Origin: an uncultured Candidatus Saccharibacteria bacterium
Lineage (GTDB): Bacteria; Patescibacteriota; Minisyncoccia; Phycocordibacterales; DATGWK01
NCBI GenBank assembly: GCA_964442475.1
Contig: CAYTZJ010000001.1
Span: forward strand, 1-60,072
Direction of reading: 5' to 3'
DNA: 60,072 bases
Shown piece by piece: positions 2,166 to 58,151 of the stretch (position 1 is the stretch's first letter; every line of letters starts with the position of its first letter). Below the pieces are notes generated by a model, which was not told where the DNA came from, did not search any database, and was given only the letters and a program-made list of their open reading frames with translations. Both the position numbers and the translations under genes were made by a program.

Positions 2166-2219
2166 AAATACAAACGATGCCTCACTCGAACAGTCCCCGA
2201 CTGTTCTCGCGGATCATTG

Positions 2220-2292
2220 TGGGCGATAGAGGACTCGAACCTCTGGCATCAACAACGTCAATGTTGCGCTCTACCAACTGAGCTAATCGCCC
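2220..2292 (-). tRNA. tRNA-Val (anticodon GAC)
   Basis: Reverse complement folds as a cloverleaf: GGGCGAT acceptor, AGCTCAGTTGGTAGAGC D arm, anticodon loop TTGACGT, GGTTCGAGTCC T arm. CCA is not encoded. Confidence 0.9.
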
Positions 2293-2372
2293 TTATTCCG
2301 ATGTCTAAGTCTACCAAAACAGCTAATCGCCCTTATTCCGATGTCTAAGTCTACCAAAACAGCTAATCGCCC
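2281..2372. repeat. 40-bp tandem repeat (2.3 copies) built from the tRNA-Val 5' fragment plus leader
   Basis: 2281-2320 is identical to 2321-2360, followed by a 12-nt partial copy. Each unit holds the first ~23 nt of tRNA-Val and a 17-nt upstream leader. Confidence 0.95.
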
Positions 2373-2486
2373 GATAAACCTTGCCGATTCTAACAGAAAA
2401 AACGATTTATTTAAATACTAAGTCCATAGACTTTGTGCTAATCTATTTCTCAGGAAAAGTACACAAACAAAAGAAAGGAATTCCGA

Positions 2487-4156: not shown

Positions 4157-4200
4157 GACCCTATCATCTATCGATTAGGAGTTTTCCCTCTAACAAGAGT
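4157..4200 (+). pseudogene. Degenerate copy of the 5' half of tRNA-Glu
   Basis: GACCCTATCATCTATCGATTAGGAG matches the first 25 nt of the tRNA-Glu 79 nt downstream with 4 mismatches. Weaker similarity continues towards the anticodon loop. No 3' half is present. Confidence 0.7.
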
Positions 4201-6602: not shown

Positions 6603-6626
6603 GCCGAGATAGCCGTTTTGGTAGAT
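6603..6626 (+). pseudogene. Partial copy of the tRNA-Phe 5' end
   Basis: GCCGAGATAGCCGTTTTGGTAGAT versus genuine GCCGAGATAGCTCAGTTGGTAGAG, located 73 nt downstream. Confidence 0.75.
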
Positions 6627-6675
6627 AACATCAAGTCACCACAAACATAAATATTGGCAGTAACTTTAAAATAAC

Positions 6676-21877: not shown

Positions 21878-21884
21878 GTAATTT

Positions 21885-22302
21885 GTGTTTCTGGGTCTAT
21901 AAGCCGAATTCTGTCCAGCAAAGCTCCGTGAGGAGCAAAGCGTGGATAACTATTTATCTAGCCCCGTGATTACTCTCGGGGTCAAGCGGCACACTCACAA
22001 CCTTTCGGTTCGAGTCCGGCCTTGCACACAAGTAAGGATTTAGCCGTTGCAACCGATACGTTACCGTACCGACTCATCCCGCGTGGCTTTCAAAGAAAAC
22101 CATGGGAGCTGTAGTTCTTTCGTTCTACAGCGTCTCTGTTCGCACCTCGTGGATCACTCCAGACGGGCGTTACCCGCTACCCTTCCAATTTTGCCCATCG
22201 CAGGTGATGCAAAATTGGTATGTGTTCGGACTTTCCTCCAAACGTCTCCATTTCGCCCCTTGGGCTATACAAGACGATGGCAGTTATCCAACCCAGAACA
22301 AA
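21885..22302 (-). ncRNA. rnpB: RNase P RNA (bacterial type)
   Basis: Minus strand contains GGAGGAAAGUCCGAACAC (CR-I, plus-strand 22224-22240) and GGACAGAAUUCGGCUUAUAG (CR-V, plus-strand about 21898-21917). P1 pairing joins UUCUGGGU (5') to ACCCAGAA (3'). Confidence 0.85.
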
Positions 22303-34238: not shown

Positions 34239-35123
34239 TTAGGCTTCTAGAGCGATTTTAGCGAGTTTTAGGGCTCCTTCCTTGCTACCAGCTTCAGCTA
34301 CAAAACACATATTGTGGCAGAAGTTGGCGTCTGAGACCCCCGTCACAGCCACTAGATCTGCACCACTTTTACCTGCCCAGGATGCCGGTAGGTCTTTCCT
34401 ATTCACAAAGCCACCAGGACTGTTTCGTACAGTTCTAAGAACCCATGTTTGCTTTTTGGGATGAACTACAAAAAGAGGTTCGGGAAATTTTGAAAGGATT
34501 CCTTTCCACGGATACACTTGATCAAGAATAATAAGACGCTTATCCTCAGTCTTGTGATAAATTTCAGCGACAGACCCTTCACCATCTACCACGCCCTTCA
34601 TCAACTCAATTTCTCTAACTAGTAATTTTTTTGCAAAGTCAACAGCAATTAAAAAATTCTGATCAATGTGTGAATCATCCTCGTTCCACGCTGGATTCAT
34701 GGTTCGAATAAATGTTTGAATGTCGTAATGAAAAACACCAGTAAATATTTCTTTTGAGATTGAAACACCGTTGTCTAGAGCATCCATTGGTTGGATTAAT
34801 TTTTGCTCGATCATGTTTGAAACTTCTTGTGAGCCCGCAATCTTTTCACCATACTCTTTCCAAACCAAACCAAAAGCGGCGTATGGAATTCCGTTTGGCC
34901 TCTTCCCTGCTCCACCAGACTGATGATGGTCAAAACGATTTTTACTCGGATCATGGATTCCTCCGACATCAACAACGTAGTCACCTTTCTCAATTATTTT
35001 CTGATCTCGTGTTCGGATAACTTTTACCTTTCCCAAAAGCAAAGAAAGGCTAGCCACCGCAAAAACATCGTCAGCGTGAAATTCTCCACTATGGGCGACT
35101 ACTGTTTTAGATTTGAACAACAT
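34239..35123 (-). CDS. MYG1/UPF0160-family metal-dependent hydrolase
   Basis: HSGEFHADDV near the N-terminus and a DHHQ motif; 294 aa. Confidence 0.7.
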   Translation of the reverse strand: MLFKSKTVVAHSGEFHADDVFAVASLSLLLGKVKVIRTRDQKIIEKGDYVVDVGGIHDPSKNRFDHHQSGGAGKRPNGIPYAAFGLVWKEYGEKIAGSQEVSNMIEQKLIQPMDALDNGVSISKEIFTGVFHYDIQTFIRTMNPAWNEDDSHIDQNFLIAVDFAKKLLVREIELMKGVVDGEGSVAEIYHKTEDKRLIILDQVYPWKGILSKFPEPLFVVHPKKQTWVLRTVRNSPGGFVNRKDLPASWAGKSGADLVAVTGVSDANFCHNMCFVAEAGSKEGALKLAKIALEA

Positions 35124-57957: not shown

Positions 57958-58151
57958 CACGCAAACAACAACTTCATTTTTACAAGAACCGAGCGAACCA
58001 TTTATATCGTAATCGATATCAGTGACGCGCTCTAACCACCTGAGCTATACGCCCACGCAAACAACAACTTCATTTTTACAAGAACCGAGCGAACCATTTA
58101 TATCGTAATCGATATCAGTGACACGCTCTAACCACAACAACTATACGCCCG
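57920..58151. repeat. 96-bp tandem repeat (2.4 copies) made of the tRNA-Ile 5' half plus a 57-nt leader
   Basis: 57921-58016 is repeated at 58017-58112. A third, diverged 39-nt copy of the tRNA 5' half sits at 58113-58151. Confidence 0.95.

Follow-up and report, generated by a model that had tools for sequence, protein, structure and literature searches.

The sequence analyzed here, referred to as the window, comprises 60,072 nucleotides (nt; positions 1–60,072) of contig CAYTZJ010000001.1 in assembly GCA_964442475.1, from an uncultured Candidatus Saccharibacteria bacterium, and all coordinates are given in window numbering. On the minus strand, a functional tRNA-Val(GAC) gene is preceded by two identical units of 40 bp arranged head to tail, each combining a partial copy of the tRNA 5' end with a short spacer (Table 1). 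Read on the minus strand, each unit is GGGCGATTAGCTGTTTTGGTAGAC + TTAGACATCGGAATAA (24 + 16 = 40 nt). The spacer of the proximal unit adjoins the mature 5' end (+1) of the tRNA, which has the D-arm TAGCTCAGTTGGTAGAGC and no encoded CCA. Both units carry GTTTTGGTAG, which corresponds to the five-base block GTYTT at nt 13–17 of the tRNA, followed by GGTAG. This block, and its constancy within sequence that otherwise follows the neighboring tRNA gene, is the main subject of what follows.

An initial annotation of this DNA had described two tandem 40-bp units composed of a 5' tRNA fragment and leader sequence, and both the arrangement and the composition are borne out. Positions 2281–2320 are identical to 2321–2360, and 2361–2372 repeats 2321–2332 and 2281–2292; Tandem Repeats Finder (TRF) reports 2270–2372 as an array with a period of 40, 2.6 copies and a score of 185. 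Local alignment of tRNA-Val to its own upstream flank yields z = 8.4 against shuffles, and the downstream flank contains no 3'-end copy of the tRNA (z 0.3). The coordinates and period had been given correctly, and the unit as written out contained one C too many. In both units, nt 1–12 (12/12) and nt 16–23 are identical to tRNA-Val, nt 13–15 are GTT in place of CAG, and nt 24–25 are CT in place of GC. The CAG-to-GTT change had been recognized in the D-loop; it is really part of a block of five fixed bases, GTYTT, at nt 13–17. Its description as destroying the D stem needs amendment: of the three bases, C13 alone is part of the D stem, A14 and G15 being positions of the loop and tertiary core, and the 3' strand of the D stem is lost as well.

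Table 1. Leader units, tRNA-Val(GAC) and related features of the window, with positions in window numbering
Feature	Position	Strand	Remarks
Distal leader unit	2333..2372	minus	One of two identical 40-bp units
Distal unit, copy of tRNA-Val nt 1–12	2372..2361	minus	
Distal unit, block GTTTT	2360..2356	minus	
Distal unit, copy of nt 18–23	2355..2350	minus	GGTAGA
Distal unit, spacer	2349..2333	minus	CTTAGACATCGGAATAA
Proximal leader unit	2293..2332	minus	Identical to distal unit; block GTTTT at 2320..2316
Functional tRNA-Val(GAC)	2219..2292	minus	ARAGORN and Rfam RF00005, 70 bits
Sigma-70-type promoter-like site	2387..2415	minus	TTTAAA-17-TAGAAT, TG before -10; consensus match only
Diverged 5'-half copy of tRNA-Glu(UUC)	4157..4199	plus	nt 25–29 CAGTG -> GTTTT; alignment 4157–4181, z 9.0
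GTYTT-family unit before tRNA-Phe(GAA)	6603..6627	plus	GCCGAGA TAGCCGTTTTGGTAG ATA; z 6.1
RNase P RNA, bacterial type A	21884–22299	minus	91.7 bits, below the Rfam gathering score of 100
Two 96-bp units before tRNA-Ile(GAU)	58150..58055 and 58054..57959	minus	z 29.5

A promoter scan of 2100–2600 returns a single match, the site upstream of the Val array, and none inside the units; its -10 element ends 14 nt upstream of the distal unit. At the gathering threshold, an Rfam 15 scan of the window identifies only tRNAs and small-subunit (SSU) rRNA, and the units match no known RNA family. The genes neighboring the array encode FtsZ, a pyridine-nucleotide disulphide oxidoreductase, a 187-amino-acid protein without a Pfam match, and a DUF1761 protein.

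The units are not confined to tRNA-Val. Each tRNA in the genome (628 kb in 55 contigs, 40% G+C, 35 tRNAs) was aligned to its own flanks, with significance expressed as z against shuffles. Across the flanks of all 35 tRNAs, significant 5'-end copies lie upstream of Val-GAC, Glu, Phe, Ile-GAU, Lys, Thr-GGU, Met, Ala-UGC, and Asn, and almost nothing comparable is found downstream. The initial annotation had pointed to fragments upstream of tRNA-Glu, tRNA-Phe, and tRNA-Ile, all of which prove real (Table 1), and had regarded the feature as recurrent and not as a one-off slip, which holds for this genome and well beyond it. The core sequence TAGCTGTTTTGGTAG occurs seven times exactly in the genome and nine times when one mismatch is allowed. 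All nine occurrences lie upstream of a tRNA, on the same strand, and are preceded by the 7-nt acceptor strand of that very tRNA. The two 96-bp units before tRNA-Ile(GAU) differ in how far they have been rewritten. In the proximal unit tRNA nt 1–38 are reproduced exactly, and because CAG is kept this unit is probably young; in the distal unit nt 13–15 read GTT, and two further changes are present. The two have the appearance of one process caught at an early and a late stage.

Three further observations concern the same genome. Upstream of tRNA-His (contig C38, 5142–5213) there are three diverged 5'-end copies (gtggctag...) with a period of approximately 35 nt; these were recognized by eye, are not flagged by the flank alignment, and represent a sequence family distinct from the GTYTT units. 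On contig C3, a 19-nt exact copy of the 3' end of tRNA-Ser(GCU) (nt 70–88) is situated 150 nt downstream of the gene at 34798–34885 (z 13), which has the appearance of the classic signature of an integration site or 3'-end-linked repeat. RNase Y (514 amino acids) and RNase J (633 and 639 amino acids) are each encoded twice, on contigs C8/C20 and C22/C41, which may mean that the genome bin combines two closely related strains or contains redundant contigs.

To describe the family, 159 non-redundant tRNA loci with 239 units were assembled. A typical unit comprises a copy of nt 1–12 of its own tRNA (the 7-nt acceptor strand and TAGCT), GTYTT in place of nt 13–17, a copy of nt 18–22 (GGTAG), and a spacer about 16 nt in length, and units are found singly or head to tail, directly upstream of the cognate tRNA and on the same strand. 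Unit size is 36–41 nt, the commonest period is 37–40 bp, and the commonest proximal spacer is 15–19 nt long. The bases following GGTAG are D-T-M, with T present in 84% of units. One to ten units precede a given tRNA (107 of the 166 unit-bearing tRNAs have a single one), and units within an array are almost identical. Host tRNAs have a D-arm of the TAGCTCAGTTGGTAGAGC type and include Thr (three anticodons), Val (three), Lys (two), Phe, Ile-UAU, Met, Asn, and Ala. 5' copies are almost never found at tRNAs with other D-arms (Arg-CCU 0/16, Arg-UCU 0/12, and Ser, Leu, Gln, and Gly). The acceptor copy matches its own tRNA at a mean of 6.1 of seven positions, compared with 2.9 of seven for random tRNAs.

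Individual members illustrate the variation within the family. At metagenomic locus L273 (tRNA-Ile-UAU), three identical units share the acceptor copy GCCAGAA, and the tRNA itself reads GCGAGTA; the units resemble one another but not the tRNA, which suggests that units can multiply among themselves after drifting from the gene. The largest array, at tRNA-Phe in metagenomic locus L195, consists of ten 38-bp units with the spacer gtaACATCGGAATAtt. This spacer and that of the Val units described here have ACATCGGAATA in common, despite the different tRNA and organism.

The exact core is present in all seven genomes of the genus. Allowing one mismatch, it is found in 122 of 401 genomes and 87 of 223 genera of the order, with GTT and GTC as the two main variants. 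G192, a complete genome from another family (701,796 bp, single contig), has three 40-bp units at tRNA-Val(GAC) in the same gene order, and further units at Thr-UGU, Ile-UAU, and Lys-UUU. A metagenome scan for the core followed, after 20–50 nt, by a canonical D-arm identified at least 120 loci. A prokaryote-wide scan with one genome per species returned many chance matches. Those that are tRNA-linked and have a fitting acceptor copy come only from Nomurabacteria, Parcubacteria/Paceibacteria, Taylorbacteria, and Saccharibacteria records and one bin. Outside the candidate phyla radiation (CPR), no tRNA-linked core with a fitting acceptor copy was found among these genomes, and the matches lie away from tRNAs, except for two in Firmicutes that are near a tRNA but have no fitting copy. 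None of the 118 core matches in viral contigs is linked to a tRNA, and carriage of the units by phages was rejected on this ground. The Val units thus belong to what, as predicted from sequence comparison, is a CPR-wide family of pre-tRNA leader repeats.

Most units were collected using the motif itself, and the block was therefore also assessed in non-proximal fragments detected through nt 1–12 only (n = 51). In this motif-independent sample nt 13–15 are GTY in 47 of the 51 fragments and nt 24 is T in 45, while nt 25 is A in 33, C in 12, and T in two; nt 16–22 resemble the tRNA about as closely as the acceptor copy does. Intermediates between CAG and GTY are almost absent, with 194 GTT or GTC fragments against six others. 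Bystander tRNAs, defined as those outside the motif pattern used for collection, are especially informative. A GTTTT fragment precedes Asp with native CAACT or CAGCT, Thr with native CAGCT, and Thr and Phe with native CAGGT; only in a Thr-GGU with native CAGCC, where the fragment reads GTTCT, is the block kept in part. From nt 18 onward the bystander fragments follow the native sequence, for example in having A18 at three loci. Likewise, Lys in the genome studied here has native CAGCT and a GTTTT fragment, and the block also lies upstream of an Ala with native CATCT. Altogether, the same block lies upstream of at least 12 tRNA species in two CPR classes.

Orthologous Val-GAC arrays separate the parts of the unit most clearly. 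Their acceptor copies follow the tRNA of each species (GGGCGAT, GGGCGGT, GCGCGGT, GCGCGAT), and their spacers have no mutual similarity, yet the block is still GTYTT. As the flanks track the cognate gene, this pattern indicates concerted evolution of the tRNA-derived flanks, predicted to proceed by unequal exchange between units and between unit and gene. Retention of GTYTT where the native D-loop differs indicates, on the other hand, that the block is under purifying selection, as does its preservation in the 107 single-unit tRNAs, which have no sibling to copy from. Persistence of the units across CPR classes while their spacers diverge completely argues for both processes acting together, and the term “slip” understates the finding.

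The rewritten bases coincide with positions on which the tRNA fold depends. G13 is unable to pair with G22, U14 abolishes the U8–A14 tertiary pair and Y15 the G15–C48 pair, and U24 and A25 are unable to pair with C11 and G10. By these rules, the unit copy should be wholly unable to serve as a D-arm. Despite the A+T-rich genome, U13 and U25, the alternatives that could still form wobble pairs, are rarely seen in the motif-independent sample. Disabling requires neither TT at nt 16–17 nor one identical solution, and from this we infer a sequence-specific reading of a U-rich, single-stranded site. In our judgment there is an even chance that each unit is a transcribed pre-tRNA leader element, in which a disabled copy of the tRNA 5' end carries a selected, U-rich, single-stranded recognition block.

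The main rival reading is that of a near-neutral minisatellite, generated by slippage duplications of the promoter-proximal region, in which the shared GTYTT reflects a few old origins, handed down as units duplicate one another, instead of selection. Much about the arrays has this character: units are near-identical within an array and range in number from one to ten, they are facultative per tRNA and per genome, and the 96-bp duplicate at tRNA-Ile is apparently young and unrewritten. Acceptor copies, moreover, decay with plain GC-to-AT bias and without a pairing constraint, G>A opposite C being nearly as common as C>T opposite G. Common origin does not readily explain, however, why the block survives where orthologous spacers have diverged beyond recognition, why it persists in single-unit tRNAs without a sibling copy, why it is identical at so many tRNA species in two CPR classes, or why it resists homogenization by the gene when its flanks do not. 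The genomes concerned are also merely 0.6–0.8 Mb in size. On balance, we consider a neutral origin of the constancy unlikely.

The position of the arrays relative to promoters and other tRNAs bears on how they may be expressed. The best sigma-70-type -10 element precedes the start of the distal unit by 8–10 nt, the same distance as at unit-less tRNAs; with respect to the promoter, the distal unit thus stands where the tRNA 5' end otherwise would, and the array lies downstream of the promoter. Unit starts and real tRNA 5' ends have a common context, Y-A-Y followed by G, in all three classes of start. Fourteen of the 159 arrays begin 7–68 nt after another tRNA on the same strand, nine of them within 30 nt, leaving no room for a terminator and a promoter. 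The most economical reading of this geometry is that the arrays are most likely transcribed, as leader or inter-tRNA spacer RNA.

A related observation was made on the tRNA loci that were read individually (in the window, in G192, and in fetched loci). The best -10 element ends 8–11 nt before +1, and positions -3 to -1 are Y-A-Y before G+1. Given this spacing, transcription of many CPR tRNAs may begin at the mature 5' end or only a few nt away from it, and the transcripts would then be nearly leaderless.

If transcribed, the units might be excised as trans-acting small RNAs of approximately 40 nt that mimic tRNA 5' fragments, for instance as sponges or decoys. Their regular size of 36–41 nt and the Y-A-Y/G context that each shares with real tRNA 5' ends would suit such a role, and E. 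coli offers precedents in its tRNA-linked repeats and in 3'ETS-leuZ (PMC8144298). Release by RNase P, however, would depend on base pairing between the acceptor copy and the tRNA 3' strand, and substitutions in the copy are not biased to keep this pairing (42 keep and 85 break it); selection for RNase P cleavage at unit starts is therefore not supported. Nor do the units have structure of their own. A hairpin between the U-tract and an A-rich spacer was considered, and units with 13–25-nt spacers are as stable as shuffles (z 0.02 and -0.04); a weak structure signal is seen only in long-spacer leaders (mean z -0.86). No antisense or trans partner of the core exists elsewhere in the genome at up to two mismatches, and its complementarity to RNase P RNA or the 3' part of 16S rRNA is no better than that of shuffled cores. 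A trans-acting product therefore appears distinctly improbable.

The units could alternatively be promoter modules, acting as tandem promoters that raise tRNA output, in which TTGGTA would take the role of the -35 element or TGGTAG.. that of an extended -10. TTGGTA does resemble TTGACA, in a few tRNA-Lys leaders it is followed at exactly 17 nt by a good -10, and there is homology between the Val spacer and the -10 region that precedes the Val array. Against this, hexamers resembling a -10 are not enriched 16–18 nt after TTGGTA (10 observed, 11.3 expected), and with the usual spacers of 15–18 nt the -10 would fall in the next acceptor copy. The hexamer TAG-N-T-M, for its part, lacks the essential T in last position. 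Units are also found 7–30 nt behind another tRNA within clusters, and the only site detected in the scan around the Val locus precedes the array. It is very doubtful, then, that the units serve as promoters.

tRNA genes are classic integration sites, and the units could also be scars of a mobile element or integrase directed at the 5' part or the D-loop of the tRNA gene, in the form of attL-like remnants or of footprints of insertion and excision at nt 12/13. Palindromes resembling repetitive extragenic palindromes (REPs) do occur at this point in 5' fragments of other CPR loci. One (CCTGCCTGCCGGCAGGCAGG or similar) lies at nt 12/13 of the fragment upstream of Glu-CUC in G192 (L030), another just after nt 13 of the fragment upstream of Arg-GCG (L246), and copies are also found upstream of two tRNA-Ala genes in G192. 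The units themselves are unlike attL/attR pairs, in that they are identical, 36–41 bp long, and head to tail, they copy the 5' end and not the 3' end, and they carry the same block at many tRNA species. No integrase or element lies between the copies, and in viral contigs the motif never occurs in a tRNA context. We regard this origin as highly improbable. An assembly artefact, with one unit or none at the true locus, is scarcely credible: although the source is a fragmented metagenome-assembled genome (55 contigs) with some single-copy genes present twice, the array and its flanks span approximately 100 bp, less than a usual short read, and the same architecture appears in many independent assemblies, including three units of 40 bp at the syntenic tRNA-Val(GAC) of G192.

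Returning to the leader-element reading, the following course of events can be envisaged. Units would have arisen by tandem duplication of a gene segment from about -16 to about +22. Their number would grow and shrink by slippage between units, and unequal crossing-over or gene conversion with the gene would keep them gene-like. The Val units would form part of a 5' leader of approximately 88 nt that starts from the promoter-like site (2415..2387), and elsewhere units would lie in inter-tRNA spacers; RNase P would remove them from the precursor. With C13, A14, G15, and the 3' D-stem strand lost, neither a D-arm nor a tRNA core would form from the copy, which would thus be unable to take the place of the true 5' half when the precursor folds and is processed. 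Being constant as a sequence, the pentamer points to a single-stranded U-rich site that would be read by a trans-acting factor, and the net role would be to control or assist the maturation or turnover of pre-tRNA.

Candidate readers are encoded in the genome, namely a cold-shock-domain protein and RNase Y (613 bits), alongside an RNase J family protein. A motif scan finds no RNase E/G signature, and with RNase Y and RNase J present instead, an RNase E-type site was rejected. The RNase P RNA of the window (Table 1) has counterparts in relatives, and is similarly divergent in several genomes of the genus. RNase Y of Staphylococcus aureus cuts after G in A/U-rich unstructured RNA (PMC4608709), and CspB of Bacillus subtilis prefers GTCTTTG/T (PMC1904285), to which the GTCTTGG and GTTTTGG of the units may be compared. 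A more specific proposal, which we put forward tentatively and think unlikely to hold in full, is that GUYUU units are a dedicated cis element: a duplicated D-loop would have been exapted as the site where a factor binding single-stranded RNA, such as RNase Y or a chaperone with a cold-shock domain, is loaded or cleaves, and this factor would govern the maturation or decay of a defined subset of tRNAs.

Several points weigh against a selected recognition block. Most of the unit set was collected with the motif itself, and the motif-independent samples are small and have related members. Approximately 70% of the genomes of the order are without the exact core, and tRNAs with the same D-arm may lack units altogether (Val-UAC and Ala-GGC in this genome, Phe and Lys-CUU in G192); being facultative per tRNA and per genome, the units imply no essential role. 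Pure disabling leaves the preference for G13 over A and the TT at nt 16–17 unexplained. As for the readers, the preference of RNase Y is weak and degenerate (bioRxiv 10.1101/2023.03.12.532304), and the units match the CspB site at five to six of seven positions, in a preference measured for the Bacillus protein on DNA.

CPR bacteria have minimal genomes and single-copy tRNA genes, and how they make and control stable RNAs is barely understood. The element described here has a precise anatomy and a range that is wide but CPR-restricted, together with an unusual evolutionary signature, in which flanks are homogenized with the gene and a block of five bases is shielded. If the block is a recognition site, it would make pre-tRNA processing accessible to experiment in organisms that are hardly amenable to culture; if the units are a dedicated cis element, they would constitute a regulatory layer, so far undescribed in bacteria, in the biogenesis of tRNAs. 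There are practical consequences as well. Several arrays lie at contig ends, and units therefore break contigs at tRNA genes; they can also mislead the annotation of tRNAs and pseudogenes.

The literature searched contains no description of 5'-end tRNA leader repeats with a fixed rewrite, and the units are best placed by comparison with four known systems. Duplications at integrase att sites resemble them in that a tRNA fragment stands beside an intact copy. Such fragments, however, usually represent the 3' part and flank a kilobase-scale, integrase-bearing element in place of forming tandem 40-bp arrays. The Val locus has none of these features: its copies are adjacent at a 40-bp period and its neighboring genes are ordinary. 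RNA repeats of type III toxin–antitoxin systems (ToxI-like) consist of head-to-tail units of approximately 36 nt, whose transcript is cleaved into single-unit RNAs, and their arrays precede a gene for a toxN-type endoribonuclease. The CPR units are likewise short head-to-tail repeats, but they precede a tRNA and carry sequence specific to it.

Tandem arrays of plastid trnF(GAA) pseudogenes are said to have been described by Koch et al. in 2005. In Brassicaceae and Solanaceae, one to seven or more partial copies of 32–73 bp lie 5' of the gene, near sigma-70-type promoter motifs; their number varies by lineage and they are treated as neutral markers (PMC3786074). The Val units match these arrays in location and tandem arrangement, as partial copies directly 5' of a functional gene, but not in content. 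Plastid copies retain anticodon, D, and T domains, mostly without acceptor strands, and concern one tRNA gene only. CPR units copy nt 1–22, and so keep the acceptor strand and D-loop but not the anticodon domain, occur at the 12 or more tRNA species noted above, and keep one block constant across bacterial classes.

A further parallel is provided by the tRNA-linked repeats (TLRs) of Escherichia coli (Egan & Landy 1978). According to one account (PMC8144298), TLRs are found in tRNA and rRNA operons and copy 18–19 bp of one end of the adjacent gene. The same account states that there are one to five per locus, that they are co-transcribed, that some are processed into RNAs binding Hfq and CsrA, and that the 3'ETS-leuZ spacer acts as a small RNA sponge (PMC8144298). 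Both TLRs and CPR units are short repeats that copy one end of an adjacent stable-RNA gene, and no sequence relationship was found between them. TLRs are copies of the 3' end located downstream of the gene. The Val units, like other CPR units, are instead copies of the 5' end located upstream, and they carry the fixed rewrite of five bases. The feature is real, recurrent, and partly under selection, and represents a variant of tRNA-linked repeats.
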